From contig CAZHIA010000008.1 of assembly GCA_964532425.1 (NCBI GenBank), forward strand, positions 13,224-77,223: 64,000 nucleotides of DNA. The letters run 5' to 3'. Positions 28,769 through 53,140 of the stretch are shown one piece after another. A program made the translations under genes and the position numbers. Under the pieces are notes generated by a model that saw only the letters and a program-made list of their open reading frames with translations, was not told the origin of the DNA and did not search any database. Source of the DNA: an uncultured Candidatus Saccharibacteria bacterium (GTDB taxonomy: Bacteria; Patescibacteriota; Doudnabacteria; UBA920). Numbering within the stretch: the first letter of the stretch is position 1; each line of letters begins with the position of its first letter.

Positions 28769-28781
28769 TCTGCGCATCTAG

Positions 28782-29183: not shown

Positions 29184-29227
29184 GTTTATAGAATGAATGG
29201 TTGTTTACAGTATATCAGAAAAATTCC

Positions 29228-29875: not shown

Positions 29876-29978
29876 GGAAGTATTATACAGCAATCGTAAG
29901 GAGTGGTGTTTCCGGTCGCGGTTTTCGTCTGGTATAATTGTTTCAGTAATGCTTACCAGAAGCAAAGTAACTATACAT

Positions 29979-30818: not shown

Positions 30819-30943
30819 TCGTCAGTTTTGGTGAATATGTTGTACAACGATTTGTACTGCCATGACTTCAGTTGACAATGTGAAGCGTGAGTATAATAAA
30901 ACGCGCGTCTGCGCGTTTTATTAGTCGTGTTATTAGAACAGGC

Positions 30944-31729: not shown

Positions 31730-31824
31730 ATAGATTCTGTTGTCGGAATTGTACGACACATTGTACAATCTTGTCAACCGCGATATGGTGAGGGTGGTAC
31801 ATTCGAAAATCAAGGAGGCAGTGT

Positions 31825-33267
31825 ATGGGACAGCCGGGTTTTACCTCAGCACCGATTATTCAGCAGCAGGAGTTGACCTGGAAATGTAATAACTCCTGCG
31901 CGTTTTGTTACAATCCGGAACGCTGCGTGGAGCAGTTCCAACCGCGCGCGAGCGACCGGAAGTGCAATGTGGCCGTAGCCGAAGAATCGGTAAAACGGGG
32001 AGTTATGGCAGTCTGCCCGACCGGCGGCGAACCGTTGCTTGTCGGAGATCATTTGTTCGAGATACTTGATATCTACAAGCAGGCCGGGTGCTATACCAGT
32101 ATCAATACGAACGGTCGGCTAGTGACAGAAGTGAATGCGGGCAAGCTGGCGCAGGCCAAGCTCAACACGGCACTGGTCTCCATTCATGGGGTTGGCGAGC
32201 TCCACGACCGGATGGTTGGCATCCCTGGTGCGTTCGCAGAAACCCTTGGTGGAATTGAGCGACTGCGCGGCCAGGGAGTGTCAGTCACTCCCAATTTCGT
32301 GGCTACGGCCAAGAACATTTCGGGACTGCGCCCGGTAGGGCAGCTGCTGGCAATCCATGGCCTGAAGGCTATGACAGTCACGCCTTTTCTACCTTCGTGG
32401 GGATCGCAGGGACATTGCGGATTTGTGCTGCAGACCGCAGACTATCGTGCCTACTTTGAAGCCATACGGTACATTCGGACACTTGGCGTGACGATTGATT
32501 CCACGTTGCCTATCCCGCCGTGCGTACTGGTGCGGCATTTTCCTCAAAACTGGCAAGAGTATCTCGACGTGCATTCCCCCCGGGTCTGCATGGCCGGACG
32601 CTCGTTCGGTGTCGTCTCGCCGGATGGCAAGTTCCGGGCCTGTATCCAGGCGCCCTATTTGGTAGACTTCGGGGGATTGGTTACAGAGAGTTATTCGGCG
32701 AGCTGGCGTAGAGCGAATGGGTGGGCGGATCTTACCATGATCCCTGATGCGTGCCGCGACTGTGCCGCTCTGGATGTGTGCGGTGGTGGATGTCGGACTA
32801 GCTGTATGTGGGAAAATAACGGCTCGGTGACCGGGTCGACCATGTATATGGGAAAGCCGTTAACTTCGCAGGAAGCCCGGCCTTTTCTCGATCGGGTAGT
32901 GTGGACAGGGGAGCTGCCGGCAGGCACCTGCTTCCGCTTGGCCGAAGGAGTAAAAGTGAGGGATGAAGGCTGGGGTGTGATCGCTTGTAATCCTGCATAC
33001 CAGTCGTTTACCGTTCTCTCCCCGGAAGCACGATCCTATCTCAATCGGGGAGTGGTATACACCTTCAATTCTCAAAAGATTGCCCGGGTACTGTCCGCCA
33101 TCAAGGCGATCGAGCCCGTGAGTAGTATTGGGCAGGTTGCGCAGTGGCCGGATACTATTTCCGTCCTGCCGGGCAATATCCTGCTCCCGCGTCTGGCGCG
33201 GCATTTAACCGATTCAGGTCATATTTACTGCCTGCGGGCAGATACGGGAGAGAGGTATTTCTTTTAA
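31825..33267 (+). CDS. radical SAM enzyme with C-terminal SPASM/twitch domain (peptide/protein-modifying maturase type)
   Basis: CNNSCAFC (Cx3Cx2C) near the N-terminus, a GGEPLL motif, and a C-terminal Cys cluster CRDCAALDVCGGGCRTSCMW. Confidence 0.7.
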   Translation: MGQPGFTSAPIIQQQELTWKCNNSCAFCYNPERCVEQFQPRASDRKCNVAVAEESVKRGVMAVCPTGGEPLLVGDHLFEILDIYKQAGCYTSINTNGRLVTEVNAGKLAQAKLNTALVSIHGVGELHDRMVGIPGAFAETLGGIERLRGQGVSVTPNFVATAKNISGLRPVGQLLAIHGLKAMTVTPFLPSWGSQGHCGFVLQTADYRAYFEAIRYIRTLGVTIDSTLPIPPCVLVRHFPQNWQEYLDVHSPRVCMAGRSFGVVSPDGKFRACIQAPYLVDFGGLVTESYSASWRRANGWADLTMIPDACRDCAALDVCGGGCRTSCMWENNGSVTGSTMYMGKPLTSQEARPFLDRVVWTGELPAGTCFRLAEGVKVRDEGWGVIACNPAYQSFTVLSPEARSYLNRGVVYTFNSQKIARVLSAIKAIEPVSSIGQVAQWPDTISVLPGNILLPRLARHLTDSGHIYCLRADTGERYFF

Positions 33268-33350
33268 AGGGGGATTAGAGCCAAGAGAAAATTACAATCA
33301 AAAAGAGCAATGGGAATTCCCATTGCTCTTTAATTTGTTGTGGTTCCAGG

Positions 33351-33707
33351 CTATTGCTTCGGTTCAACTACCACTGCCGTACCGTAAGCAAGGACTTCGG
33401 TGACGCCGCCCATGATTTCCGTGGCATCGTAGCGCGCGCCAATGACGGCGTTGGCGCCCATTTCGCCTGCGTGGTCCAGCATGAGATTGAATGCGTCTTC
33501 GCGGGTTTTTTCGCAGAGCTCGGTATAGAGGGAAATGTTGCCCCCTACGATTGTCTGGAGTGCTGCTCCGATATTACCTATCACGGATCGCGACCGGACA
33601 ATAATGCCCCGGGAAACCCCAAGGGTTTTCACAATTCGGAAATTGTCCAATTCAAACCCTGTCGTGACCATAGTGTGGCTGACCGGAGCTTTGGGAGTGG
33701 TTTCCAT
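33351..33707 (-). CDS. YbjQ/UPF0145 family protein
   Basis: 118 aa with conserved GG...IVGG...GANAV...G(T/S)AV pattern typical of YbjQ. Confidence 0.6.
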
Positions 33708-33803
33708 ATATTTGTACAGTTAATAACTGGTTTGATTGTAGCACGTTTTATCTCCTGGTGGATTTCAGAACGATATACCCGTGTGCAATTATTGTGTTAT
33801 CAT

Positions 33804-34541
33804 ATGGTCATGAAAAACATAAGCCACGTGGACCCTGTTGCGTTGAGTAAATTCATTAATATCTTGAGGGGGCATCTTGCCTCAAAGGGGTTTTTTGAAT
33901 ATCATTTGTATTCCACTCAGGATTACAAGATAGAAGGTGCTCGAACTTTTCAAATTAAGCCGGAGCTTTATTTGCGTTATAATCCTGAACCGGACATTTG
34001 GCAGATAGGAAATCAGTTCGATAAATTTTTTTGGATAGGGAGCATGTATCGTGACGAGGAGCGGTTGACTCGGTTCCACCGGTATGAATTTACAGTTATG
34101 GACGTGTATATGAGCAATGGTAAAGTGCGGGATGTGGTAGGTTATTTTATCGAATACCTTAAAGTTTTGGAGAAAGGATTGAAGCTCAAAAATAAACTTT
34201 CTCGACTACCAGTCAAATTTTGCAAATACAAGGAGTTTAAAATGCTCACTAGGACCGAAAAAGAAAGAGCATGGTACGTAGTAACCGGTTATCCAAAAGA
34301 CGAGTCTTTCTATGATGAGCTGGAAGCTGGTGGGGATGCTACGAGGAAATTTGAGATATTCCATTATAGTACGGGTAGAGTGTTAGAGATTGCGGCTTGC
34401 GGGATCTTGGGAGAAAATCATAATCCGAAGATGTTTGTCAGGGACGGTAAAAAGTTTTTACAGGGAGAAGTCTTAAGAAAAAAATTTGTAGGCTTTGGCA
34501 TGGGCATTGAGAGGCTTATGTATTTATATTGCATGAATTAG
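33804..34541 (+). CDS. class II aminoacyl-tRNA-synthetase-like catalytic core protein (AsnA/EpmA-like stand-alone domain)
   Basis: Class II motif 2 (FHRYEFTVMDVY) and motif 3 (GFGMGIERLMYLY). About 245 aa only. The longer ORF from 33354 overlaps the opposite-strand YbjQ gene, so it is trimmed to the ATG at 33804. Confidence 0.5.
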   Translation: MVMKNISHVDPVALSKFINILRGHLASKGFFEYHLYSTQDYKIEGARTFQIKPELYLRYNPEPDIWQIGNQFDKFFWIGSMYRDEERLTRFHRYEFTVMDVYMSNGKVRDVVGYFIEYLKVLEKGLKLKNKLSRLPVKFCKYKEFKMLTRTEKERAWYVVTGYPKDESFYDELEAGGDATRKFEIFHYSTGRVLEIAACGILGENHNPKMFVRDGKKFLQGEVLRKKFVGFGMGIERLMYLYCMN

Positions 34542-34593
34542 GTTGGTGTTGACTACAAAATACCCTATGGTCTTTAGACCATAGGGTATTTTA

Positions 34594-34683
34594 TGGCGGA
34601 GAGAGGGGGATTCGAACCCCCGAGGCCCTTTCGAACCTACTTGCTTTCCAAGCAAGCGCACTCGACCACTATGCGATCTCTCC
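34594..34683 (-). tRNA. tRNA-Ser (anticodon GGA) with long variable arm and encoded CCA
   Basis: Reverse complement folds as a cloverleaf: 7-bp acceptor ggagaga/tctctcc, anticodon loop ttGGAaa, long extra arm, T-arm gggggttcgaatccccc, 3' gcca. Confidence 0.85.
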
Positions 34684-37622: not shown

Positions 37623-38900
37623 ATGGCAAAGAATAAGAAGGCAAAAAAGCAGGCTCGGCGCGCAGCATTGAGGCGGATCAAGGGAGCGGCGAAGAAAAAA
37701 GACAAAGCGGGAAAGAAGCTTCACAAGCCGGTCGCAAAGGTGGTACGCAGCGCCAAGCATGAGCCCGTCCGGGCAGGTGTGGAACCACACCCCAACACTG
37801 AACTGCAGCTCAAGGCGCTATTTGCCAAGGGCTCGGAGCGCGGCTTCGTAACTGAAGCTGAGATTTTGCATGCTTTGCCACAGTTTGAAGACGATATCAA
37901 GGGCCTCGAGGGTGTCATGGACAAACTGGAATCACGCGGTATTGAGATTGTCGACCAGGAAGTAGCCTCGGTGTGGGAACAGAACAAGCCGACCGAGGAT
38001 GCACCGGAAGGAAAAGGCAAAGGAAAGAAGAAGAAACAGGATGACATGGTTGATGCCTTTGATTTGGGCGATATTTATGATGATTCCATCCAGATGTACC
38101 TGCGCGAGATCGGCAAGGTACCGCTGCTGACCGGCGAAGAAGAGATTGATCTCGCCAAACGCATCGCCAAGGGCGATGTGGCGGCGCGCAAGAAGTTGAC
38201 TGAAGCCAACCTCCGGTTGGTCGTTTCTATTGCCAAGAAATACATGGGTCGCAACCTCGGGTTGTTGGACTTAATCCAGGAAGGCAACTTGGGACTGTTC
38301 CGCGCTGTTGAGAAGTTCGACTGGAAGAAAGGGTACAAGTTTTCGACGTATGCCACCTGGTGGATCCGCCAGGCTATTACCCGCGCCTTGGCTGACCAGA
38401 GCCGCACCATCCGTATTCCTGTGCATATGGTGGAAACGTTGAATAAGTACGCCCAGGCCGAACGCCAGCTGGTCCAGGATTTGGGACGCGAACCGCTGCC
38501 GGAAGAGATCGCCGCAGAAATGGGTATCGAGGTGGAGAAGGTTTATCACTTGAAGAAGATCTCTCAGGAGACCGTCTCTATCGATTCTCCAGTGGGGGAG
38601 GATGAAGGTGAGGATTCTTCGCTCGGTGACTTTATCGTGGACGAAGATACGACCAAACCGAACGAGGTAGCCGGACGCCAGCTACTGAAGGAATATGTCC
38701 AGAATATTTTGAAGGACCTCGATCCGCGCGAACAGAAGATTTTGAAGATGCGTTTCGGGCTGGAAGACGGCGTTACCCATACCCTAGAAGAGGTTGGTGA
38801 AGAGTTCGGGGTTACCCGCGAGCGCATCCGGCAGATCGAAAGCAAGGCACTAGAGCGCATCCGCGAACATATTGATATCAATAAATTGAGAGACTATTAG
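37623..38900 (+). CDS. rpoD: RNA polymerase sigma-70 factor RpoD (short form, basic N-terminus)
   Basis: Regions 1.2, 2 ([13 protein letters not shown]), 3 and 4 ([18 protein letters not shown]). 425 aa. Confidence 0.95.
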
Positions 38901-38902
38901 AC

Positions 38903-38926
38903 TAAAATCCCCGAAAGGGGATTTTA
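38903..38926 (+). terminator. rho-independent terminator after rpoD
   Basis: aaaatccccgaaaggggatttta. A second perfect palindrome cctgcctgccggcaggcagg lies at about 38951-38974. Confidence 0.6.
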
Positions 38927-39376
38927 TTTAATTTCTAATTCTAATTTCCAACCTGCCTGCCGGCAGGCAGGTTTCCAATAAAATACCCAATGTCCAAATT
39001 TGGAAATTATTGCATTAGAAATTTTATTAGGAATTAGGAATTGGATATTGGAAATTAAGATCATCTTGCTTTTCCCTTCTCCTCGTGTTCTGCCCATACT
39101 TTAACTTTTCCACCGTCGCTGAATAACTGCTTATTTTAGCCGAAATTTTAGCTATTGACCCCCGTCAAATTAGGTGTATCCTGTAAATAGGAAAGGAATT
39201 AACGGATGCAAAACCAGGTACTGGTTAGGGTGACTTTTCAATGAAGTCGCGATAAGCCCAAGGCCGCTTAAGGCCGTTGCATCAAGCACCAAATAGGAAC
39301 ACACAATTCGCACAATGAGAAAAGTACACCCTTAGCGGCAGGCTTGTTCTTGAAAAAGACAAAGCCTGCTGCTGTT

Positions 39377-40051
39377 TTATTTATAGTTATTTGTATCTTT
39401 TTCAGCCGGACGCAAACCGCTCGCCGCTTCCCCGGTCCTGACAATCCGACGGTCGGGAATGAACCACATGAGCGCCACGAGCACAAAGAGAATATCGGAA
39501 ACCCATGGAAGCCAGAAAGCAGCGCCGACTGCCAGTGCATACAAGGTGAGTGATAGCCATCCTTTGTAGTCCTCGCCGAGTGCGGAGGCAAGCCGCGAAT
39601 CCTTGCCCTGGCTGGCAACAATAGCGCGCTGCAAAATTTGGTAAGCAATGGCAGAAAGCAGCAGAATGCCGGCATACAGGGCAGTAGGCCATGAGCCGCC
39701 ATGGTTCTCACCAAGCCAGCCGGTCACGAACGGGACCAGTGAGAGCCAAAATAACAAATGAAGGTTGGCCCACATAATTTTCCCGGTTACTTTTTTTGTG
39801 ACATGCAGCAAATGGTGGTGGTTGTTCCAGTATGCACCGACCACTTCGAAGCTTAAGGCATACGTTAAAAATACCGGCAGCAGCGGCTTAAACACGGCCG
39901 GGTTGGACCCGGAAGGTACTTTCATTTCCAATACCGTGATAGTGAGTATAATGGCAAACACGCCGTCGCTGAATGTCTCTAAACGCGCCGGTCCGGGCGG
40001 TTCGGTTGTGGCAACCGGCTGGTTCTGTTCGTTTGGAAGAGGTAAATCCAT
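39377..40051 (-). CDS. TMEM175/DUF1211-family membrane protein (putative K+ channel)
   Basis: RLETFSDGVFAIILTITVLE signature and 6 TM helices. Confidence 0.7.
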   Translation of the reverse strand: MDLPLPNEQNQPVATTEPPGPARLETFSDGVFAIILTITVLEMKVPSGSNPAVFKPLLPVFLTYALSFEVVGAYWNNHHHLLHVTKKVTGKIMWANLHLLFWLSLVPFVTGWLGENHGGSWPTALYAGILLLSAIAYQILQRAIVASQGKDSRLASALGEDYKGWLSLTLYALAVGAAFWLPWVSDILFVLVALMWFIPDRRIVRTGEAASGLRPAEKDTNNYK

Positions 40052-40144
40052 ACGTACTTACACGATCACGGCTATTTTTTCTTGCATCCAATAAAAAACC
40101 GGGGGGCCTTTTCAGGTCCCCCGAAGGGTTGTTGTTGGCCTGGA

Positions 40145-43100
40145 TCAGAAAATGAAGCGCAGGCCGAGCTGCAGGCGTCGGGCATTGGTGCCGTCAGGGA
40201 ATCCCTGGGCGGCCGTGCCAGTGCCGAGACTGGTTTGATAGGTAAGCGTGGGAACGCCGGAGACGAGCGCATACGTGTACGCGCGGGTATTCACCGAAGT
40301 GAAGTACGGGCTGTTGAACACGTTGAATCCGTCAAACGTGAACATGGCTTTGTAGCGTTCATGAATCGTGACGGATTTGCTCAGGCGCAGGTCAATGCGG
40401 GTGATCTGGTCAACGAGCACGCTGGACGTCGGTAGGAATGGCGCACGGGTGTTGCCGCCGTACCCGTTCAAAGTGCTACCGGTGAAAGCGACAGCATAGC
40501 CGGCAGGCACATAGGCCGAAGACAGTGAGACCACCGGTGTAACAGCCGGGGCTGACTGGAACGTACCCAGGCCTGAAAGGCTCCAGCCGTTGAGCAAATA
40601 CTTCAAGCGATGGTCATTGCTGACGAGTGTCGGGCTGTAGCTGCCGTTCATGACGAGCCGGTGCCGGACATCGAGCGCAGCCGTGCCTTTTTCCACGCGG
40701 TAGTTGCCGGGCATGTAGCTCTGCGGGCCGCCGCTGGCGAAAATATTTGGCGTGCCGGCGAAGCCTTGTCCCTGATCAATCGCATGCGACCATGTATAGG
40801 CGGCGCTGCCGGTCAGTCCGTGACTGAAACGCTTGCTCAATTGGACAGACAGGCCGTTGTACCAGCTGTTCAAGCCGGCATCAATGATGTTGATGCGGCT
40901 GTAGCGAGTATCGACGCGGTTGCTGCGAATGTAGACCGGCGTCGAATATGTGAATGCCTGCGTCGGGTTGCCCGGGGTGCCGATGACGTTGTAAGTCACG
41001 GTCGGGCCCGGGGCGCCGATGTTGATGTCATTGACCGAGGTCAGATGCAGTCCACGGCTCCACATGCCGGAGACCGTGAGTGCGAGGTCGCGGGCAAGCT
41101 GCCGTTCAATGGCGAGATTTGCTTGCTGCGTGTACGGAGCGCGGAAGTCGCTGGCTGCAATATTCAGACTAACCGAACCGGCCGGAGGGTTGTAGTTTCC
41201 GGAGTTCGGCAGCACATTCGGGAAGACCGGTCCTGCCGCCTTGTCAGCGGCATTCGACGATTGCAGCGAGATCGACTTTTGGTAGATGCCGTTACCGAGG
41301 AAGAACGTATTGATAAGTCCTCCCGGGTAGCGGGCATAAAACATGCCGTATCCTCCGCGCAGGACAGTCTTGCTTTGGCTGTCGAGCGAGTAGGCAAAGC
41401 CGATGCGCGGCGCAAAGGCTCCGGCAAACGTCGGGATGACCCCGGTAGCCTTATAGTCAGGGTTGGTGACGGTCGGCTGGGGTAGGGCGCTGTAGTCGTA
41501 GCGGACGCCTAAGTTCAAGGTCAGACGCTGCGTGATTTTGAGCTGGTCCTGAACGAAGAACGCGTAATCCTTAATCGCGAAGTCGACCAGGGGATTGCCG
41601 ATAGTCTGCGAAAAAGACGTCCAGTTTTTGGTTCCAGTCGTATTGCCGGTCAGGTCAGCCGCCAGAGCGCTGAATGACGGATAGCTGTAGGTACCGGTGC
41701 GGTTGAACAGCATATTCGTCAGGTCGCGTGTGCGCATGAACTCAAAACCGAACTTGACGGTCTGGGAGCCTTTGATCCAGGTGAGCGTATCCGCAATTTG
41801 GTGGCGCGTTTCGATCGGGTTCAGGCGCGGATAATCCGTAGCCGTTCCAAGGTAGCTCTGTCCCGTGATGCTGATGCCCAAGAAACCTTGCGGCACAATA
41901 CTCGAGGGAAGAGCTAAGCTCTGGTTCGGGTAGTCGAACAACTTGTCGTAAAACCAGTTGTATCGAAGCTCGTTGACCATGGTCGGCGTGGGGATGAAGG
42001 TCCACGAGGCGCGGCCGTATTTGTCGCGCACCGAGGAATCGACGTTGTTGCCGACGCCATTTCCGTTATTCAGTACTGCCTGGGTTTGCAGCCCGTTGGG
42101 TGAGACCCAGCGAAGCATATTCATCCCGACAGTAAACGAGTGGCGTTCATTCGGCCGGTAGTCAATCTTGGCATACCCAAGGTTCTGGTTGACCGAACGC
42201 GGAACGGTTTGAAATTCGCGATTGAGGAACGTCCGGGCGGCCGCACATTGTTCCGGCGTAGCCGGGGCGCCGCAGGTGCCGATGAACTGGCCGGTAGTGC
42301 TAAACAGCGGATTTCCTGCTCCGGTGATTGAAGCGATGAGAGGGAAGTCCCGCCACAAGCCTTCGTAGTTAACGAAGTAGAACAGCTTGTCGCGGATGAT
42401 CTTGCCACCAAGGCTGCCGCCGAGCTGGTTGCGCTTTTCGGTCGGGTTGAACCGCTTGCCCGTGGTCGGGTCAATGGTTGCAAAAATATCCGTGGCATTA
42501 AAGTTCTGGTTCCGGAAGAACCAGTACCCGGTTCCGTGGAATTCATTGCCGCCGCTGCGGGTCACCGTGTTGACGACACCGCCCATGGCGCGTCCGAATT
42601 CAGCGGAAAAGTTGTTGGAAACAACTTGGAACTCCTGTACCGCATCTTGTCCGATTTGGGATCCGATGCGGGTACGGCCGGCGTTTTCATTATAGTAACC
42701 GTTGGTCGTATCGCCGCCGTCCGTTAGGAAGGTGTTGCCGCCGGCAATGCCGCGGAACGAGATAAGCCCGAACGTACCGTCAGGAACGACCGCGGGCGAC
42801 AGGAGAACGAACGAGTCCACGCGGCGGCCATTGATCGGGAGATCCTGAATCTGGGTCGATCCAACCACTTGTGACACGTCGGTCTTGGTGGAATCGACAA
42901 TAGGCGCTGCAGCCTCGACTTGCACTGAGGTTGCGGCGCTGGCCAGCTGGAGTTCGATGTTGAGCATCAAATTTTGGCCGACCAGGACCTGGATGTCCTT
43001 GGCTTTGTACTCGGCAAAACCGGGACTTGAGACCATAACGCTGTAGCCTTCCGCAGGCGTCAGCGAGGGAGCGGAGAATATTCCGGCCTCGGTTGTCGCC

Positions 43101-43282
43101 ATAGCGCGCTGAATACCTTTGGTTTCATTGACAATGAAGACCTTGGCATTCGGAATGGCAGCGCCTGACGGGTCATGTACGGAGCCGGAAATGGCTCCGA
43201 GACCGGCCACAGACTGGCCGAAGGCCAGCGAGGCGAAGATAAACAAAAATACGACTCCCGCGAGCGCGGTAAATCGTCTCAT
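40145..43282 (-). CDS. TonB-dependent outer-membrane receptor with N-terminal carboxypeptidase-regulatory-like domain
   Basis: Signal peptide, CarbopepD_reg-like beta-sandwich (SGSVHDPSGAAIPNAKVFIVNETKG...), plug domain (TFLTDGGDTTNGYYN), a 1045-aa beta-barrel and C-terminal LRFIF with a terminal aromatic. Locally higher GC. Confidence 0.8.
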   Translation of the reverse strand: MRRFTALAGVVFLFIFASLAFGQSVAGLGAISGSVHDPSGAAIPNAKVFIVNETKGIQRAMATTEAGIFSAPSLTPAEGYSVMVSSPGFAEYKAKDIQVLVGQNLMLNIELQLASAATSVQVEAAAPIVDSTKTDVSQVVGSTQIQDLPINGRRVDSFVLLSPAVVPDGTFGLISFRGIAGGNTFLTDGGDTTNGYYNENAGRTRIGSQIGQDAVQEFQVVSNNFSAEFGRAMGGVVNTVTRSGGNEFHGTGYWFFRNQNFNATDIFATIDPTTGKRFNPTEKRNQLGGSLGGKIIRDKLFYFVNYEGLWRDFPLIASITGAGNPLFSTTGQFIGTCGAPATPEQCAAARTFLNREFQTVPRSVNQNLGYAKIDYRPNERHSFTVGMNMLRWVSPNGLQTQAVLNNGNGVGNNVDSSVRDKYGRASWTFIPTPTMVNELRYNWFYDKLFDYPNQSLALPSSIVPQGFLGISITGQSYLGTATDYPRLNPIETRHQIADTLTWIKGSQTVKFGFEFMRTRDLTNMLFNRTGTYSYPSFSALAADLTGNTTGTKNWTSFSQTIGNPLVDFAIKDYAFFVQDQLKITQRLTLNLGVRYDYSALPQPTVTNPDYKATGVIPTFAGAFAPRIGFAYSLDSQSKTVLRGGYGMFYARYPGGLINTFFLGNGIYQKSISLQSSNAADKAAGPVFPNVLPNSGNYNPPAGSVSLNIAASDFRAPYTQQANLAIERQLARDLALTVSGMWSRGLHLTSVNDINIGAPGPTVTYNVIGTPGNPTQAFTYSTPVYIRSNRVDTRYSRINIIDAGLNSWYNGLSVQLSKRFSHGLTGSAAYTWSHAIDQGQGFAGTPNIFASGGPQSYMPGNYRVEKGTAALDVRHRLVMNGSYSPTLVSNDHRLKYLLNGWSLSGLGTFQSAPAVTPVVSLSSAYVPAGYAVAFTGSTLNGYGGNTRAPFLPTSSVLVDQITRIDLRLSKSVTIHERYKAMFTFDGFNVFNSPYFTSVNTRAYTYALVSGVPTLTYQTSLGTGTAAQGFPDGTNARRLQLGLRFIF

Positions 43283-43591
43283 ATACCGAATCCTCCTTAA
43301 GGAGTTGAAATGTGATTTCCCAAAGCACGCCCCTGAAGCTGTGTGAGGTGGGATGTTTGAGAAATGGTTTGATCGAGATCAATCCACTTTTGGTATAGCG
43401 AAAAAACAGCAATCTGTCTAATTGTTATTTTTCATAATTTGTGATATAATTAAGATAGATTTTATATAAAGCTGCTTAAGAAAAGCGAAAGTTTAATGTA
43501 TCTGACAAACGAGTATGTTTGTCAGGATTAATTGCTTTTTTGAGCATTCGAAATAAAAGGTCTGGCAGCGTCAAAATAATTTTTATATACC

Positions 43592-44818
43592 ATGGATATG
43601 GTTAAAATAAAACGGGTCAAGCGCCAGAAAAAGCGGAGCACTGCAGCCGAAAAGATTATGGCGGGTTTGGGACTTGGAACGACCTTGCTCGGTATGACCG
43701 GCGGTGCAGTAGCGCCAAAAAAAAGCAATAAGGCTATAGTCCGCACCAACGCTTCATCACGAGCCCGTCAAATCGGCTTGATGATGCACCAGGCCCTGCA
43801 GTCAAGCGTGGGTACGCCGACGGCCAAGGCGGCAGAAACCGATGAAGAATGGGAGGGTGATGACGAAGCTACCCCAACCGATACGACCCCGAGCGATGAC
43901 GTGGAAAATTCCGATGATGCTGCGTCTTCCAATGATTGGCAATATGGGACACCGGACGATGCCGAGACAGAAACCAGTGAAAGCGGTACGGAAGCCACAG
44001 ACGATACCGATACCGATATCGAAAACGGAGAGGATGCCGTAGGGGAGGGGCAGGATATTGAATTGGCTGATGATCAGGAAACGGCGGATGAAACCGAACT
44101 GGCTGAAGTTGATAATGAGGACGTAAATATTGTGAACGGACAGGTGTATACAACGAACGGGAGTACGGTTGCCAATAACCAAAGTGGAACCAGCGTGTTA
44201 GATTCGCATGGGGTCTTGGCCATAAACGGGCAGGTCTATAATCAGGGAGATACTGATGTGGAAGAGTCAGAGGATGGTTCAGGTAATTTGGTTGCAGCTG
44301 CCGCTGACAGCATCGAGATGGCCAATAATTTCGGCAATCCCCAAGGCTTACAGATGCCGACCGGTTACCAAACTTTCCAGGATGAGAGCGAAACGTCTGA
44401 AGCAGAGGCGGATTCCGAAGCGGAGCCGGCTGCTGCCCGTACCTATAAGGTTAAGAAAGGTGACACCTTATGGGGTATTTCGCGAAAGTATTATGGCCGC
44501 GGCATCCTGTGGCGGAAGATTATGAATGCCAATGCAGACAAAGTAACTGAGCCGAGGCTTCTTCAGATCGGTACTGTGTTGACTATCCCGCCGCTTGAAC
44601 AGTCGGATCTGGAATCTATTCCCAGAGCTGCCGTGAAAACAAAAACCCAAACCCATGCTTCCCCGTCAACCGGTGATCCATTCGGCAGCCAGCAGTATGG
44701 ATATGATTCCGGCTCAAGCAATAGCGGGGGATATACTCCGGGATTCCTACTGCAGGATTTTCAGACACAAAACAACACTGACTCGTCACAAGAGGGATCT
44801 GATATCGAGAGTGAATAA
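43592..44818 (+). CDS. LysM-domain protein with long acidic (D/E/T-rich) low-complexity region
   Basis: LysM: [18 protein letters not shown]...IMNANADKV...[11 protein letters not shown]-terminal TM/signal segment. Confidence 0.65.
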
Positions 44819-44854
44819 TTTCATTTTAGGTTAATTCAACCTTATATCAACTAA

Positions 44855-44870
44855 TCCCGCCCCTGCGGGA
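44855..44870 (+). promoter_or_regulatory. conserved 5' leader hairpin of paralog 3 (tcccgc-ccct-gcggga), followed by GGAAATAAAC and 21 nt to the ATG
   Basis: Same element as upstream of the other three paralogs. Preceded by tatatcaa, a -10-like box. Confidence 0.45.
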
Positions 44871-44891
44871 GGAAATAAACACACACGTTCT

Positions 44892-47800
44892 ATGTTCGCA
44901 AAGCGTCTTTCCTGGGTAGCCGCGCTCTGCCTTGCCCTCACGGCCCTGTTGCCGTCTTCGGGTTCGGCACTGACTCTGGCTGAGCTGACCGGCACGGCAG
45001 CCACCTCAAGCTATAGCCCGATCACCATCACTTCGGCTTCCAATAAAACCATTACCATCACTGCGACGCCGCTGTCCTTTGACGGTTCAGCCTGGACCTA
45101 CCAAGTCGCCTGGAACCGGGCCAAGAATGCCAAGGGTTCGCTCTATGTTTCGCTTAAGTCCAATGCCGGCATCAAGGTTGCCAGCGTGGCTGCCGCTGAC
45201 CAGGCCGGGACAGTGGCCTTCACCGCGCTGCCTGGAACAGTTTTCCGGGTCGAATTCTACTCCCTGCCGAATGGCAAGGGGAGCCTCTTAGTCCGTAAGT
45301 ACTTTACGAGCCTCTCGGCAGACAAGGCGGTAGCAACGACAGGGGCAGCAAGCAATTCTCCATATTTAATGGGAACTAATGGTTATACGTTTGCAAATAC
45401 CGGCACGAGTTCCACATATGGAGTTGGAACGAGTGGTTATACTGCCGTAGGTACTGCCACAAGCCCTGCTTTAGCGGTGACAAATGGCAATACTGTGTAC
45501 TGGCCGGTTTCCACTTTACAGAAAGACCCAAGCCCAACCAGTGCCAATAATCCATACTGCAAAAGTTCTAACGGACAATCCTGTTATGCCATACCTGCAG
45601 CTTTAGACCCTGTTCAAAACTATGATTTGAGCCTTAAGCATTCAACTCCGGAACAAAGCAGCCAGTGGGTGGTCGCATACAATTATCGATCGGCAACTAC
45701 AGGCAAGTGTATGCACTATGACGCAGCGGGGACGCGCTCGGAAATTCCTTGCTATGCCGACCATCCGCTGCCGACCGTATCCGACAGTTATGTCCCGACC
45801 TTTAACGATCCGACTTTCCGTTTTGATTTAGCAAATGCGACTTGTGTGTATACCGGTGCGTATTCTGCCTATAAAGACTGGGGTCATAGCCATTGGGACT
45901 TCTGTACCGGTTATGGCGGCACTGCCTGGGCGGGCGCTGTCCCTTATACCGTAGTTGATTCCAATAATCCCGTTTCCGGCAACCCAACTATCACCACTAC
46001 AACCACCACCACTACCAATCCTAACCCTGCTCTTACTACCGTTAATCCTACAACTACTGTCATCGGTAATGTTGAATATAAAACCGTCGGCCAAATTTTA
46101 CAGGAAAAGTACGGTATCAACTGGGATCCGACAAACAAGCCAAAAGATCCGCAACCTTCAGGGATAAACAATTATTACTCCTCAACCTATCTTGCCCCGC
46201 TTCCCAGTCAGAGTGTTGGTCTGAATTATGTTAATGCCAACAAGGGTGCGAGTGTACAAATGGTGCTGGGTATGAATTACACCGACGGCAAAGGCAATTG
46301 CTATCACGTCGATTTTTCAACCGGTCAAAAAGTAGTATCGCACCTTGATTGTTATGCTGACCGTCCTTTGCCTGTAATTACCGGTGATGTCCCGGCTCCA
46401 ACCAATGACAACTCGAATTTCCCTTGGTCATTGGCGAATGCCACATGTATTTATATAGCCGGTAACAGTCCATATAAAAATCCGGGAGCGAGCCACTACA
46501 ATAGCTGTGGGGGTACTGACCCGGCAAATATCCCAGGTCCCAGCACGACAGTTGATGTGAATGAAAAAGTTGCTATTAAATATAACGGGGTGAGTATTGA
46601 TACTGACCCGTATAATCCAAAAAATCCGTATGCTCCGCGCGTAGATAATTACTCCTACGCGATGCCCACAATTGACACAGGTCTTAAATTGGTGGATGCC
46701 AATGGCGGTATGAGTGTGCTTTGGGTTCAGAGCTTCCTGTATAAAGACGCCAGTGGCGCATGCCATAAAATGGATAGCACGAGCGGTACGCCGGTTGTGA
46801 GCGACATCCCGTGTTACGCCAACCATCCGCTTCCAACATGGACAAAATCTACCCCGCCCGCCCAAAATGACCCGACTTTCGATTGGACCATGTCCAACGC
46901 CCAGTGTTTGTACACTGCCGGCAGGGGTAAACCGATACCCGGTGCCAGCGAACTCTTGAGTTGCGGGGTGGCTGGTGTAAATCGAGACCCCGGTTACTTC
47001 CAGAATCCTATTTATCCGGTAAACCCTGATGTCAAATTGCCGTCTTCCACAGACCCGTCAATTGTAACTTCTGTAACTTATCGTCAGGTTTCGGGAACCA
47101 CCAGCGGCGCCGTGATTTGTTATAAAACTCAGCGGGTAAAGGGCGCTAACTCTTTGTACCCCAATGAATACACGATGGTTACCACTACTGTCACTTGTCC
47201 AGACCCGCTTCCTCCGGTTTTGGTGGTTGGCCAGGTACCAAGCGCCAATGATACGAATTTTAACTGGGCGGCGGCTAACGCTACTTGCGTGAGAAAAGCT
47301 GACAACTCTCCTGTTCCTTGCGGAACCAGCGCGGCTTCTACCGGTATAAATGGACAGTGTGGCTCGGTCTCCGGACAGATCTATACCTCGTTAAGTTCCT
47401 CAGCTTCTGGTTTGTGTACGGTCGGCACGATGTCAGGTTTTTCCGGCACCGGCCCCTGGAGTTGGTCATGCAGCGGTAATAACGGTGGTATTGCGGCAAC
47501 CTGCTCCGCGTATGCCAACTCGAGCCAGCAGCAGGCAGGCCAGCAGACTTTGTATGCCAAGCAAACCGCATGCCAGACTTCCGGCGGGACCTGGGTTGCC
47601 AGTACTTCTGTATGCGTGCCTCCCAGCTCAACTACCACCAATCAGCCCGCTATCAACGAGCCTTCTTCCGGTTCTGTCGGCCAGAAAGCGACAATTAACA
47701 CTCCTAACACTGGTGGAGTTGGCGCGTTCCTGAACATGTCGAGCAGTAACCCCAGTGTATGTTCCGTACCTTCGACGGTATACGTAAAGCCGAATGATCC

Positions 47801-47903
47801 ACTCAGTACGCCGTCCTGCACCTGCACGGGCAAGGGGACCACCACTGTCACCATTTCCGGCGCGGGTTTTCAGACCTCGACCGAAACGATCACCTGCAAC
47901 TAG
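44892..47903 (+). CDS. giant secreted Cys-rich tandem-repeat protein, paralog 3 of 4 (conserved N-domain; 4 modules with CYADHPLP / NDPTF-F / ANATC-Y motifs; poly-Thr linker; Cys-rich tail)
   Basis: 1003-aa ORF. Signal peptide and N-domain align with paralogs 1, 2 and 4 (ALTLAELTGT...SSY.P.TITSA.NKTITITATPLSF...RAKNAKGSLYVSLKSN...RVEFYS.PNGKGSLLVRKYFT). Confidence 0.85.
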   Translation: MFAKRLSWVAALCLALTALLPSSGSALTLAELTGTAATSSYSPITITSASNKTITITATPLSFDGSAWTYQVAWNRAKNAKGSLYVSLKSNAGIKVASVAAADQAGTVAFTALPGTVFRVEFYSLPNGKGSLLVRKYFTSLSADKAVATTGAASNSPYLMGTNGYTFANTGTSSTYGVGTSGYTAVGTATSPALAVTNGNTVYWPVSTLQKDPSPTSANNPYCKSSNGQSCYAIPAALDPVQNYDLSLKHSTPEQSSQWVVAYNYRSATTGKCMHYDAAGTRSEIPCYADHPLPTVSDSYVPTFNDPTFRFDLANATCVYTGAYSAYKDWGHSHWDFCTGYGGTAWAGAVPYTVVDSNNPVSGNPTITTTTTTTTNPNPALTTVNPTTTVIGNVEYKTVGQILQEKYGINWDPTNKPKDPQPSGINNYYSSTYLAPLPSQSVGLNYVNANKGASVQMVLGMNYTDGKGNCYHVDFSTGQKVVSHLDCYADRPLPVITGDVPAPTNDNSNFPWSLANATCIYIAGNSPYKNPGASHYNSCGGTDPANIPGPSTTVDVNEKVAIKYNGVSIDTDPYNPKNPYAPRVDNYSYAMPTIDTGLKLVDANGGMSVLWVQSFLYKDASGACHKMDSTSGTPVVSDIPCYANHPLPTWTKSTPPAQNDPTFDWTMSNAQCLYTAGRGKPIPGASELLSCGVAGVNRDPGYFQNPIYPVNPDVKLPSSTDPSIVTSVTYRQVSGTTSGAVICYKTQRVKGANSLYPNEYTMVTTTVTCPDPLPPVLVVGQVPSANDTNFNWAAANATCVRKADNSPVPCGTSAASTGINGQCGSVSGQIYTSLSSSASGLCTVGTMSGFSGTGPWSWSCSGNNGGIAATCSAYANSSQQQAGQQTLYAKQTACQTSGGTWVASTSVCVPPSSTTTNQPAINEPSSGSVGQKATINTPNTGGVGAFLNMSSSNPSVCSVPSTVYVKPNDPLSTPSCTCTGKGTTTVTISGAGFQTSTETITCN

Positions 47904-47918
47904 AGCAGTACAGCATAA

Positions 47919-47955
47919 AAAACAAGCCTCCGGAAAATGCCGGAGGCTTGTTTGT
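47919..47955. terminator. bidirectional terminator between paralog 3 and the convergent minus-strand gene
   Basis: aaaaacaagcctccgg-aaaat-gccggaggcttgtttgtttt. Confidence 0.6.
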
Positions 47956-47982
47956 TTTACAAGTCCATGAGCTGTACTTGTA

Positions 47983-48777
47983 CTAGCGCAGGACTGACAT
48001 ATCCTTAACCGATGTGGCAGTAATAGCAGGACTCTCCGCCAGGTGTTTGCCCTGAACGCGGACCGTGTCGTTGTAATTGAACTGGTTGAGGGTGGCGGAT
48101 TTGCCGTTTTTCTTTTGCAGCTTGGCTTTGCTGATATCGACCGAATAGATGACATTATTGGCCACGACGGTCATCCAACCGTCGCCTTTCATGGTCAGAG
48201 TGCCGGTTATGTCGATATTGACCAAGCGCATGGTGGCCTGGACATCGGTTGCTTTTATGTCGGAATTGGAACGGTCCCATATGCCTTTTACCGTGGCATT
48301 CATTCCTGTTTGCAGGTCTCTGAGTCCGCCATTGCTGCCGCTGACTTTGAACATGGTGTAACTGTCGGTATGAATGGTTTGGGTTCCGAACTGGCTGCTT
48401 TGGAGCAGGAAACTTGAGGTGCTGGCATCAACCTGCGTAATTTTTCCGTTAAACGTTCCGGTGTGAGTATAGAGCGACAGATCTCTCACGGTAGCGGCGT
48501 TCATACTGTTGTCTGGCCACAGTGTACCGCTGACTTCGATCTTGTCGCCGGCAAGTATCTCCGAAAATTGCATAGGGGTTCCGTTCTTGCGCATGAGGGT
48601 CGCCTTCGAGGTTTCTGCCACGTAGACAGCCCCGCTGCCGGCCTTGAAGGCGATCTGGTTGCCCCAGGTGTGCGTAACTGTTCCGGCCAGGGTTTGCTGG
48701 ACTGCCGCCGTAGCGGTTGCCGGAAGGAGGCAGGTTATGGCTAGAGCCATGAGGCCTGCAGTACCGATTTTTTTCAT
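47983..48777 (-). CDS. secreted protein with two internal ~90-aa repeats (DUF5666-like)
   Basis: Signal peptide MKKIGTAGLMALAITCLLPATATA. The duplicated segment contains S-K-A-x-L-x-x-K-N-G. Confidence 0.5.
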   Translation of the reverse strand: MKKIGTAGLMALAITCLLPATATAAVQQTLAGTVTHTWGNQIAFKAGSGAVYVAETSKATLMRKNGTPMQFSEILAGDKIEVSGTLWPDNSMNAATVRDLSLYTHTGTFNGKITQVDASTSSFLLQSSQFGTQTIHTDSYTMFKVSGSNGGLRDLQTGMNATVKGIWDRSNSDIKATDVQATMRLVNIDITGTLTMKGDGWMTVVANNVIYSVDISKAKLQKKNGKSATLNQFNYNDTVRVQGKHLAESPAITATSVKDMSVLR

Positions 48778-48980
48778 AGGAATGGAGTAAATTTTGTTTC
48801 TAAAAAGTTGCCTTATTTACGCCCCCAGTATACACCGAAACGCCTGGCGTGTTAAGGGAAGAGTGTTGCGGGGATAAAACGACTTTTGTTACGCAGGAAA
48901 ATATTTTTTTGATTGCAATTTCGGTTTGTAATGGAATATAGCCGTAAAAAATCTTGCATAACAAGGAGTGCCATCGTAGA

Positions 48981-49802
48981 ATGAACGAAAGTCTTCCATT
49001 AAAATGCAAAAGCTTGATCAAACCAATTAAAATTATTTCCGGAGTCTCGGTGGCAAGTGTTCTCTTATTGGCCGGATACTTGTACGCTTCGTCCTTGCCG
49101 CTTCGGGAACCGGTGCAACATAGTCCTGTTGGGGACACGGCAGTCGCCGTCCTCCAGGAAACTGCATCTTCGTCTCAACCGGCTGTAGAAGCTCCTGCTG
49201 CAACCACAACAGGCAACAGTTCTGCAACGGCCAAAGTACAGAATCAGGGTTTGCTTTCTAAGGCGGTGAGTACGGCAGATGCGCAGGAGGAGTCGCCGTC
49301 GAGTTTGCAGGCTCTGGCCAACAGCGTTACGCCTGATCCGGTGACGCTTCGTATCCCGTCTATTCAACTGGTCGCACCCATCGTCAAGACCGGACTTGAG
49401 AAGGACGGTTCCTTGCACGTGCCGAGTTCGCCGGACCAGACAGGATGGTACTCTCTTGGCACCAGGCCGGGGGACATTGGCCCTGCTGTCATTACCGGAC
49501 ATTATGATTCAAAATTTGGCCCAGGAATTTTATATAATTTAAAGAATATCAAGGCAGGTGATCAGATCCAGGTGGTGAGGGACGACGGAACAGTCGCGGT
49601 GTTTGCAGTCGATCGCCTTGCACTCTATCCGCAGGACAATTTTGCCACCCAGGAAGTCTATGGCAGTATTGAGAGCGCCGGTTTGCGCATTATTACTTGT
49701 GCCGGAACCTATAGCAAGAAAACCGGCCATTATTCGGATGATCTGGTCGTGTATGCTACGTTGAGGCAGGTGCTGGTGCCGGGTGCGTATCAGCCGCTCT
49801 GA
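48981..49802 (+). CDS. sortase-family transpeptidase
   Basis: N-terminal TM anchor, catalytic His (VITGH), TLxTC-like RIITCAG Cys, conserved Arg downstream. Confidence 0.7.
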   Translation: MNESLPLKCKSLIKPIKIISGVSVASVLLLAGYLYASSLPLREPVQHSPVGDTAVAVLQETASSSQPAVEAPAATTTGNSSATAKVQNQGLLSKAVSTADAQEESPSSLQALANSVTPDPVTLRIPSIQLVAPIVKTGLEKDGSLHVPSSPDQTGWYSLGTRPGDIGPAVITGHYDSKFGPGILYNLKNIKAGDQIQVVRDDGTVAVFAVDRLALYPQDNFATQEVYGSIESAGLRIITCAGTYSKKTGHYSDDLVVYATLRQVLVPGAYQPL

Positions 49803-49834
49803 AGGCCATATTAGCATTTAAACATAGAAACATA

Positions 49835-49860
49835 AAACACCACATGCAGTGGTGTTTTTG
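49835..49860. terminator. bidirectional terminator between the sortase and SemiSWEET genes
   Basis: aaacaccac-atgca-gtggtgttt plus T-run. Confidence 0.55.
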
Positions 49861-49874
49861 ATTTATTTTATACC

Positions 49875-50120
49875 TTATCGATAGATGAGGGCGCCGATCG
49901 CGACAAGTCCGTTGAGAATAAACCATAGGCAATAGGTAAAGATAATGGTTTTTTCCTTGTGGAGAATGCCGTATGCGATCCAGAAGACGGAAAAGATGAA
50001 GTATGACATCCAGGAGATAGCCGAGACGCCTTCAACGGAATGATCGACCCAAATTTTGACAACTTGCGGGACAGTCATAATCGGGCCGAGGGCGCCGATA
50101 ACGTACATGACTTTGTCCAT
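49875..50120 (-). CDS. SemiSWEET / PQ-loop sugar transporter (3-TM)
   Basis: PQ motif in TM1 (TVPQVVKIW). About 82 aa with three hydrophobic helices. The upstream in-frame extension to 50198 is unlikely to be translated. Confidence 0.6.
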   Translation of the reverse strand: MDKVMYVIGALGPIMTVPQVVKIWVDHSVEGVSAISWMSYFIFSVFWIAYGILHKEKTIIFTYCLWFILNGLVAIGALIYR

Positions 50121-50423
50121 GACTCGAACTGCGGGCCGTTCCGGAATTTCTGTGCCGGCACGTTTGCGTTGGTGGAGGTGGTGGAATCCTTCGTGCATAT
50201 ATATAGTATATCAAATTCAAATCAATATTGTTTATGACAGTATTAATCACTATCTCTCGTAGGCAGGCAGGCTGGTAAAATTTTTTTGCCCTGCGCCTTG
50301 CCTGCTGCGCGTTTACTATCAATGAAAGTCCGTAGAGGGCAAGGCGTTATGGCAAAACAAATTTTATCCAGCCTGCCTGCCTACCATGGTCTGCTATAAT
50401 ACAAAACCGGGATATTATGTATG

Positions 50424-51047
50424 TTACTTTGCGATATCCGGAGCCGGAGCCGCTTTGGTCACCTGCCTGACCAGGACGGCATCGCTTGTGGTGGCAATGC
50501 CTTTCACCGTTACCGATTGCCCGTTCGTGAGACCGAAGTCGGAAACGCTCAGCAGCATACAGCCGATGCGGTGCTGCTCGTCCCCGCACACGCTATTCAT
50601 GTCAAAATCTAGGCGCGCTTTGAGTGCCGGCTTGCCCGGTTCTTCGTATACTAGGTAGAGGCGTTCGCCGTTGCGCGACGGTTTTTCTTTGACGACCACG
50701 CCCGCATGAGAGAAATTAATCTCCGTCTCGCATAGTTCTTCCCACGGCCGCTGGCATTTCTGGGTAGCCGCGCACCACTGGTAGCCGGCAGAGCCAATGC
50801 ATCCATGTTCGTCTCGATCGCTACCCGGCGCGGGCTGGACAGCGGCTTGCTGCGTGCTGGTAGCTGTTTCTTGCGGTGTGTGTCCGCAGCCGGTGGTCGG
50901 TTTTGGCGCAGCTGGTTTGCCATGGGCAGTCCACTGCCCGTTCTGGCAGATCCACGTGTCCTCGGGACCGCTAAAAACCCGCAGTGCCAGCATGGCACCG
51001 CCAAGTGCAAACAAAGCAATAATGAGGGCAAAAAGTGTTTTTTTCAT
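50424..51047 (-). CDS. secreted or membrane-anchored protein with DRDxHGCIGSAGYQWC module (paralog of the N-part of the 58610-59122 protein)
   Basis: Signal/TM segment MKKTLFALIIALFALGGAMLAL. Shares the ~30-aa motif DRDEHGCIGSAGYQWCAATQKCQRPWEELC with the MliC-like protein. Confidence 0.55.
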   Translation of the reverse strand: MKKTLFALIIALFALGGAMLALRVFSGPEDTWICQNGQWTAHGKPAAPKPTTGCGHTPQETATSTQQAAVQPAPGSDRDEHGCIGSAGYQWCAATQKCQRPWEELCETEINFSHAGVVVKEKPSRNGERLYLVYEEPGKPALKARLDFDMNSVCGDEQHRIGCMLLSVSDFGLTNGQSVTVKGIATTSDAVLVRQVTKAAPAPDIAK

Positions 51048-51315
51048 GGAACTATATAGAAGAATTAAGCGTATATAACAGTTTACCCGCGCACCAAATT
51101 TATAAGCAATGCATCAAAGTGCATGCCGGGGCAAATGATCATTTAGCACACTTCCCCGTTTAATGAATTTGGTGCATGGGTATAGTATACGCCCGATTGC
51201 CTTGTGGATACAAAAATGATAAACAATTAACCATTAACAGTTGGCCTTTGACTCTCTTCGGGCACCCTGATGTCGAGAAGGGGTTATCATGGTACAATAG
51301 AATTGAAAAACAGCC

Positions 51316-52932: not shown

Positions 52933-52952
52933 CATCAGAGAAGTATATACAG

Positions 52953-53036
52953 AACTCCTACGAACATACGAAAATTACGAACTACGAACCGTTGTAAATT
53001 TCGTAGTTCGATCAGTTCGTACGTTCGTAGGAGTTG
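52953..53036. repeat. long imperfect inverted repeat (about 37-nt arms, aactcctacgaacRtacgaa...cgaactacgaa) with internal tacgaac direct repeats
   Basis: Read directly. Sits between the UbiA gene and the ABC-F gene. Acts as terminator, attenuator or operator. Confidence 0.55.
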
Positions 53037-53140
53037 TGAAGATTGCCCGGTATCCATAATGTGAGAGATTGACACGCCTCGTTATTTTTACTATAATTTT
53101 TAGGCAATTTCTACCCCTTTGCGGGGTTATTTTATATAGT

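Follow-up and report, generated by a model that had tools for sequence, protein, structure and literature searches.

A TonB-dependent receptor gene of Acidobacteriota type embedded in a Candidatus Doudnabacteria contig

The 64-kb stretch of DNA analysed here, referred to throughout as the window (part of contig CAZHIA010000008.1 of assembly GCA_964532425.1), belongs to the genome of a Candidatus Doudnabacteria, a lineage within the Candidate Phyla Radiation (CPR, or Patescibacteria). On its minus strand, at positions 40145-43282, it carries an intact gene for a TonB-dependent-receptor-like outer-membrane protein (OMP) of 1045 amino acids, with a signal peptide, a CarboxypepD_reg domain, a TonB-box-like and plug-like region, a barrel of the 22-strand type and a C-terminal phenylalanine. 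This receptor gene is foreign to the genome in which it resides, it forms a precise cassette between native flanks and it is reproduced, together with these flanks, in a second assembly.

The open reading frame (ORF) of the receptor begins with ATG and runs through 1045 codons with zero stop codons or frameshifts. The domain make-up that had been read from the sequence before, a CarbopepD_reg domain followed by a barrel with a terminal phenylalanine, agrees with the Pfam search, which places CarboxypepD_reg at amino acids 31-112 (E 6e-18) and finds the barrel family PF25183 (OMP_b-brl_4) at E 2e-117 and a weak match to PF00593 at E 0.002. By inspection, with no predictor used, the N-terminus MRRFTALAGVVFLFIFASLAFGQ is signal-peptide-like and the C-terminus ...QLGLRFIF resembles an aromatic-ended beta-signal. 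The plug domain that had also been proposed stands in part. The Pfam Plug family PF07715 gave no match to the receptor even at E<=10, but amino acids ~206-255, VQEFQVVSNNFSAEFGRAMGGVVNTVTRSG, constitute a conserved plug motif, which shows weak local alignment to the FepA, CirA and PRK13483 models, to the plugs of YncD/PqqU and to one classical Plug-containing TonB-dependent receptor. A putative plug domain is thus partly supported, at the level of this motif. A conserved beta-strand-like motif, TSVQVEAAAPIVDSTKT (amino acids 118-134), is located after the CarboxypepD_reg domain and before the plug motif; it fits the family consensus and may be a TonB box.

An AlphaFold2 model of the receptor built from 56 homologs has a mean predicted local distance difference test score (pLDDT) of 70.5. 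The barrel is modelled at a pLDDT of 70-90 with ~22-24 long strands; amino acids 150-250 are poorly modelled (pLDDT <50), and the plug is unreliable in this model. The top Foldseek matches in the PDB are all TonB-dependent transporters (TBDTs), with YddB as the best (E 2e-23), followed by FusA, Cir, PfeA, PqqU, FepA and BtuB. By its large predicted 22-strand barrel the protein is therefore placed in the TBDT superfamily. As read from the sequence, a Shine-Dalgarno motif, AAGGAGGA (43292-43299, minus strand), precedes the ATG by 9 nt, and an intrinsic-terminator-like site (40088-40126, minus strand), consisting of a GC-rich hairpin and a U-run, follows the stop codon at a distance of ~20 nt. 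With a Shine-Dalgarno motif and a terminator of its own, the receptor gene is a self-contained monocistronic cassette. A scan for the sigma-70 consensus returned no promoter-like site for the gene, and a relaxed scan returned weak candidates only.

The genome around this cassette is identified by rpoD (37623-38900, plus strand), which serves as both a taxonomic and a synteny anchor. An RpoD scan of species-representative genomes yielded 80 rpoD-anchored Patescibacteria loci, which together cover ~1.3 Mb, and the RpoD of the window is 82-90% identical to that of the best loci, which come from Candidatus Doudnabacteria metagenome-assembled genomes (MAGs) and from Patescibacteria. The gene order EndoQ-like gene (g13248)-eno-pyk-ppdk-HD-dnaG-rpoD...ABC-F is common to the window and to Doudnabacteria loci. 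The far-side anchor is the ABC-F ATPase gene (53069-54634, plus strand), which is 76-79% identical to genes located 3-5 kb downstream of rpoD in two relatives (L007 and L016); in the window itself, 14 kb separate it from rpoD. The intervening DNA, from a conserved non-coding element that follows rpoD to the ABC-F gene (39386-53068), is a variable, accessory stretch, which in relatives measures only 3-5 kb and holds other genes. In the window it contains genes for a TMEM175 channel, the receptor, a LysM protein, a 1003-aa secreted protein, a DUF5666 protein, a sortase, a small SemiSWEET-like ORF, a 207-aa ORF and a UbiA-family protein, none of which has a counterpart in the flanks of the relatives (tblastn, 80 loci). 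The receptor gene thus belongs to a part of the CPR genome that is accessory and varies between relatives.

The rest of the window bears out this assignment. Pfam annotation of its ~45 genes yields dnaG-rpoD, enolase, pyruvate kinase, PPDK, iPGM, CofD, two TrmB regulators, sortase, LysM, a COG4880 propeller, an MliC-like protein and a UbiA-family protein, and none of the genes of this 64-kb window encodes a component of outer-membrane biogenesis, the β-barrel assembly machinery (BAM), Lpt, Tol or TonB/ExbBD. All context genes named in the original prediction were located: the two TrmB regulators at 8986-9870 and 30944-31813, EndoQ at 13248-14573 (E 7e-41 to PDB 5zb8), the sortase at 48954-49802, the COG4880/PF09826 propeller at 54754-56766 and the MliC-like gene at 58610-59122. 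Sortase and LysM are monoderm-type features.

Where, then, does the receptor gene come from? A protein search returned >3,800 homologs, the best of which is 78% identical, and the named ones among them, ~10 in number, are all from Acidobacteriota, mostly Bryobacteraceae. More than 100 proteins with the same pair of Pfam domains are 55-78% identical to the receptor across 98-100% of its length. Neighbour joining of 56 sequences nests the receptor in a terminal clade (with P0002-P0005 and P0003/P0007) on a somewhat longer branch. Its closest relatives lie on contigs of 58-65% GC, and on one of these (L084) an RND (resistance-nodulation-division) efflux pump and a classical receptor with Plug and barrel adjoin the homolog. 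Likewise, 17 JGI metagenome loci of receptor relatives all have contexts of 55-65% GC with no CPR gene in common. Among the 80 rpoD-anchored CPR loci, tblastn found no receptor homolog; with the receptor and its neighbours as queries only dnaG, rpoD and a few distant anchors matched. Furthermore, DNA similarity between the receptor locus and the homolog loci ends inside the ORF, and the intergenic regions match nothing Acidobacterial.

Composition leads to the same place. As had been noticed from the sequence, the receptor gene is more GC-rich than its flanks, at 0.577 versus 0.509 for the rest of the window (+0.068). Two-boundary segmentation put the maximum-likelihood GC-elevated segment at 40101-43230 (0.580 versus 0.496 in the 37-47 kb surroundings), which coincides with the receptor gene. 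The third-position GC content (GC3) of the gene, 0.715, is the highest of the 45 window genes (z 2.2). Sliding-window analysis of GC and tetranucleotides, the check suggested at the outset, revealed a composition break confined to the receptor gene, with a tetranucleotide distance of z 4.1; the only equally deviant segment of this analysis lies in the gene at 60.4-63.6 kb. The log-likelihood ratio of synonymous codons under a model of the window versus an Acidobacterial model is negative for the receptor gene alone among the 45 genes (-0.036, z -2.3), the neighbouring values being +0.15 for the TMEM175 gene, +0.12 for the LysM gene and +0.15 for the 1003-aa gene. In 17 of 20 homolog loci the GC content of the gene is at or below that of its flanks, and it is above in L090, L096 and L099 only, where the flanks measure <=1.3 kb. 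Taken together, these data support that the receptor gene is a foreign, Acidobacteriota-type gene inside a CPR contig. Vertical inheritance as a native Doudnabacteria gene is contradicted by its codon usage, by the GC break confined to the gene, by the lack of a homolog in the 80 loci and by its named relatives, which are all Acidobacteriota. The transfer probably ran from an Acidobacteriota donor of Bryobacteraceae-like type to the Doudnabacterium.

Had the assembler spliced a 3.2-kb Acidobacterial piece of the same sample into a Doudnabacteria contig, the gene would likewise be of Acidobacterial type and resemble the donor in codon usage and GC content. An exact-protein look-up bears directly on this possibility, as it located the receptor on an 11,426-bp Logan contig (L001, SRR11567520) that was made by a different assembler. 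L001 corresponds to window positions 38955-50380 at 100% identity with no gaps and spans both ends of the receptor gene. On the TMEM175 side it holds the Doudnabacteria-specific element that is found after rpoD, and on the other side the LysM gene, the sortase gene and the gene for the 1003-aa protein, a paralog of the gene at 60.4 kb. In the second assembly, too, the receptor gene is therefore flanked on either side by Doudnabacteria-specific sequence. L001 ends at 38955, within a perfect palindrome of 24 nt, where a de Bruijn assembler would naturally break off, and the Logan contig with dnaG stops inside rpoD; the link between rpoD and the TMEM175 gene therefore rests on the NCBI contig together with the presence of the rpoD-downstream element on L001. 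The window contains no N and thus no scaffolding gaps, and no repeats were found at the receptor junctions.

An artefact of this kind would have required two mis-joins exactly at the ends of a single gene cassette. It would also have to explain a k=31 Logan contig that is unbroken across both junctions at 100% identity and has Doudnabacteria-specific sequence on each side, even though a k-mer shared with another genome would be expected to branch and end the contig. In addition, the flanks retain the rpoD...ABC-F synteny of the relatives, the protein database, that sequencing run included, contains no other context for the receptor or for any homolog of >78% identity, and the window lineage of the gene has an excess of GC-to-AT synonymous changes. 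A chimeric assembly is thus quite improbable, although the arrangement comes from one sample and the second assembly probably used the same reads. Of the two labels in the original prediction, foreign or chimeric, the first is borne out by the Acidobacteriota type of the gene and its composition break, and the second is countered by the contig that spans both junctions.

The DNA on either side of the cassette deserves description in its own right. Directly downstream of the receptor gene lies the TMEM175/DUF1211 channel gene (39377-40051, minus strand), which has native-like codon usage. A search of 5.8 billion proteins gave best homologs of 65-69% identity that are non-CPR (Omnitrophica, Lysobacter and Holophaga), and no homolog was present in the 80 CPR loci, so the gene may be an older lateral acquisition. 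Its protein carries an N-terminal extension of ~30 aa. On the opposite side, and divergent from the receptor gene, an orphan gene for an acidic LysM-domain protein (43592-44818, plus strand) again shows native-like codon usage; the protein is an orphan in the search of the 5.8 billion proteins. It is followed by the gene for the 1003-aa secreted Cys-rich protein (44892-47903, plus strand), which is an N-terminal paralog of the protein encoded at 60441-63518 (plus strand): as read off the alignment, the signal peptides are closely similar and the first ~140 aa are ~75% identical. The presence of this paralog beyond the syntenic ABC-F and propeller genes indicates that the flank carrying 44892-47903 belongs to the same genome. 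Both products are secreted Cys-rich repeat proteins of ~1000 aa that match no Pfam or NCBIfam family.

Syntenic native DNA extends up to the conserved structured non-coding element (39155-39385, plus strand), a putative leader or small RNA with a terminator of its own, beyond which the variable stretch begins. An nhmmer profile of this element, which measures ~200 nt, detects it downstream of rpoD in at least 15 Doudnabacteria genomes, with copies at 5722-5957 of L006 and in L005, L010, L014, L009, L011, L038, L030, L019, L007, L035, L003, L002 and L018, 100-500 nt past rpoD. It features a promoter-like TTGAC..TAAAAT and an invariant AGAAAGGAA..GATG that combines a Shine-Dalgarno motif with the ATG of a tiny non-conserved ORF, and its predicted folding comprises a long-range stem, GGTAGCTTTTCC/GGGAAAAGCTACC, that shows compensatory changes, a covarying internal hairpin and the terminator. 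It matches no Rfam family and, judged from these sequence features, resembles a small RNA or a leader-peptide attenuator. Downstream of the element, relatives have a 445-aa coiled-coil, SLT-like gene, which is missing from the window, where the variable stretch starts at this point; the LysM gene is ruled out as its ortholog by zero similarity. Between the rpoD terminator (38903-38926) and the element, an AT-rich spacer harbours the perfect 24-nt palindrome AACCTGCCTGCC/GGCAGGCAGGTT (38950-38973), for which a 21-nt match occurs at the equivalent relative position in L064. AT-rich repeat DNA had been thought to bound the receptor gene on this side. The DNA at ~38.9-39.1 kb is indeed AT-rich (GC 0.33-0.38), but it consists of the rpoD terminator and the palindrome rather than of a repeat family, and it does not border the receptor gene, from which it is separated by the TMEM175 gene and the conserved non-coding element.

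No window gene contains an integrase or transposase domain, there are no meaningful flanking repeats in the region 38.8-44.9 kb, and the sole tRNA of the window (34594-34683) lies 5.5 kb off the receptor gene. There is thus no sign that the receptor gene is cargo of a mobile element, be it an insertion sequence, a transposon, a prophage or an integrative element.

Two further observations concern accessory DNA of the window. A second window-specific stretch is found at 27398-34683, where the gap between ppdk and the HD gene measures 7.4 kb as compared to ~0.6 kb in relatives such as L016; it contains a truncated GlnA-like gene, two small ORFs, genes for patatin, TrmB, a radical-SAM protein and a class II aminoacyl-tRNA synthetase-like paralog of low GC content (0.437), and tRNA-Ser(GGA). 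Within the accessory stretch downstream of rpoD, the UbiA-family gene at 51316-52932 (plus strand) encodes a 538-aa protein, in which the UbiA prenyltransferase domain is confined to the C-terminal half. CyoE is a UbiA-family enzyme as well, and the protein may have a link to the laterally acquired cyo operons of soil Doudnabacteria.

An OMP gene in a genome raises the question of the envelope. A comparison of thousands of genomes reported TonB, ExbB and ExbD to be missing from CPR, together with a lack of PilQ, in line with microscopy that shows no Gram-negative envelope (PMC6744442). The MliC-like gene had been regarded as a sign that the organism does have an outer membrane, and lysozyme inhibitors of this family are indeed best known from Gram-negative bacteria. 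However, the gene (58610-59122, minus strand) encodes a small protein of 170 aa that begins with a hydrophobic segment resembling a membrane anchor. Such a protein suits a monoderm just as well and is uninformative on an outer membrane, and the window is devoid of genes for outer-membrane biogenesis or TonB/ExbBD; an outer membrane is therefore not supported. A longer frame over the same region, a GTG-start ORF of 526 aa (58610-60190, minus strand), is spurious, as it overlaps an opposite-strand gene for cation efflux of the CDF (cation diffusion facilitator) family (ORF 59186-60193, start about 59237, plus strand). That the Doudnabacteria lineage is diderm and the receptor is native to its own outer membrane is hardly credible. 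The completeness of the receptor and the MliC-like gene would agree with such a view, but the receptor gene is the codon-usage outlier of the window, is nested within Acidobacteriota and is absent from the 80 related loci. Moreover, the window combines sortase and LysM with a lack of BAM, Lpt, Tol and TonB genes, the anchor-like start of the MliC-like protein suits a monoderm, and CPR are reported to have neither an outer membrane nor a TonB system (PMC6744442).

How well the receptor has been preserved can be read from its alignment with the family. Among the 317 columns with >=95% conservation it departs from the consensus at 7 (family range 0-17), and three of its changes, N190G in the plug motif, G442N and N492T, fall on columns that are invariant in the 55 other sequences (family range 0-7). 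These departures are within the family range, on the high side for its own clade. Pairwise dN/dS between the receptor gene and three relatives is 0.09-0.10 at a dS that is saturated at ~2. Private GC-to-AT synonymous changes number 77 in the window lineage versus 30 and 34 in sisters and 46 in the outgroup, an excess that fits some residence under the AT-ward pressure of a genome of 51% GC.

We consider it likely that the receptor gene was acquired from Acidobacteriota in a genuine transfer of a single gene, and that it persists as an intact passenger which is unable to act as a TonB-driven importer in its recipient. By homology with studied TonB-dependent transporters, in the donors the Sec signal peptide would export the receptor precursor, the C-terminal Phe-ended beta-signal would direct its BAM-dependent insertion into the outer membrane, and TonB, energised by ExbBD, would pull on the TonB box and open the plug in the 22-strand barrel for substrate import. 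Since CPR have no outer membrane and no TonB-ExbBD, this partner machinery is not expected in the recipient, and the receptor is therefore most likely a still-intact passenger. As mobile-element genes were not found nearby, the gene may have entered as free DNA by transformation and then recombined into the genome. The variable stretch from rpoD to the ABC-F gene, where it lies, is rich in genes for surface proteins.

Several points weigh against this interpretation. The compositional deviation of the gene is moderate (z 2-4), and the gene at 60.4-63.5 kb is equally deviant in tetranucleotides. With dS saturated, dN/dS reflects mostly the history of the donor lineage; a donor of lower GC content would give the same GC-to-AT excess, and the GC content of the receptor gene, 0.577, is within the range of its Acidobacterial homologs (0.55-0.64), so that amelioration is not proven. 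The absence of BAM, TonB and Lpt from the recipient is taken from the literature, the DNA covered here amounting to 64 kb of the genome. Finally, the two assemblies probably go back to one set of reads, the arrangement is known from one sample, and searches of the 5.8 billion proteins with the LysM and TMEM175 proteins found neither an empty site nor a second strain, because the LysM flank is an orphan.

But could the transfer be real and the receptor still be of use to the CPR cell? It might then serve as a surface or secreted protein, as an adhesin, or, once handed over to an Acidobacterial host, in that host's outer membrane; the host would be Bryobacteraceae-like. In line with such a use, the ORF of 1045 codons is intact, the signal peptide, the TonB-box-like motif, the plug motif and the beta-signal are conserved, the gene has a strong Shine-Dalgarno motif and its own terminator, there are signs of AT-ward synonymous drift with low dN, and the neighbouring genes encode secreted or surface proteins (LysM, the Cys-rich proteins and sortase). 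Intactness however is equally expected after a recent transfer, no second CPR genome with the receptor was found, and no known mechanism folds a 22-strand barrel without BAM. The three private changes, N190G of the plug motif among them, at columns on which all 55 homologs agree, and the promoter scans, which gave weak candidates and no sigma-70 consensus site, speak against a retained function too. We therefore regard a use of the receptor in its new host as unlikely.

Transfer of an intact passenger has consequences beyond this locus. Outer-membrane proteins in CPR bins are usually dismissed as contamination; here the receptor gene is physically embedded and a second assembler agrees, which makes it a fairly clean example of how a diderm-only gene has entered a presumably monoderm lineage. 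It follows that one TonB-dependent receptor gene is insufficient to infer the envelope type. The finding also adds to the evidence that soil CPR take DNA from neighbouring bacteria, and the donor clade of Bryobacteraceae-like Acidobacteria provides a lead to the neighbours, partner or host of soil Doudnabacteria. If the receptor were expressed and retained, the question would arise what role a BAM-dependent barrel plays in a cell without BAM, and if it were indeed put to use, the gene would also reveal the host of this soil Doudnabacterium, namely Bryobacteraceae-like Acidobacteria.

How does the receptor compare with known systems? Its predicted barrel fold is that of the structurally characterised TBDTs YddB (6ofr), FusA (4zgv), Cir (2hdf/9nn6), PfeA, FepA (1fep), BtuB (1nqg) and PqqU (9c4o), with Foldseek E values of 2e-23 to 1e-16 and target-normalised TM-scores of 0.5-0.66, its plug motif aligns locally with theirs, and its C-terminal residue is likewise aromatic. 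It differs from them in an identity of just 9-12%, an extra N-terminal CarboxypepD_reg domain, a barrel that is ~300 aa larger and the lack of a Pfam Plug match. The SusC-type transporters of Bacteroidota (BT2264, PDB 5fq6; Foldseek rank 41) likewise have a CarboxypepD_reg-like N-terminal extension before the plug and a large barrel, but the receptor gene has no adjacent SusD-like gene, the fold match is weaker (TM-score 0.34-0.38) and the homologs are Acidobacterial rather than from Bacteroidota.

With respect to the route into the genome, the closest parallel are the cyo (ubiquinol oxidase) operons that were gained laterally by soil Doudnabacteria, Saccharibacteria and Parcubacteria (Nicolas et al. 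2021, PMC8407418). The acquisition of cyo is an event of the same kind, in which a soil CPR takes genes of co-resident non-CPR bacteria. The products of cyo, however, can plausibly work in a monoderm membrane, whereas a CPR cell offers an outer-membrane barrel neither an obvious compartment nor obvious partners. We found no published report of a TonB-dependent receptor embedded in a CPR genome in the limited set of papers searched, and single stray genes of MAGs are seldom written up.

The nearest relatives of the receptor are the Acidobacteriota proteins that combine PF13620 with PF25183 (for example the Bryobacteraceae MAG proteins P0033 and P0037), which are equal to it in length (~1030-1045 aa) and architecture. 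All of the ~215 invariant columns of this family are kept in the receptor, and the N-terminus QSVAGLGAISG... and the C-terminus ...GLRF-aromatic are common to both. Among relatives of >=70% identity the receptor gene has the lowest GC content, and it shows a somewhat longer branch and three private changes. Unlike the members of this family, it resides in a CPR genome of ~51% GC and not in a diderm genome of 55-65% GC. Both the protein family and lateral transfer into CPR are already known; the receptor is an ordinary member of the Acidobacterial family of CarboxypepD_reg and PF25183 proteins, and what is unusual about it is the genome that hosts it.

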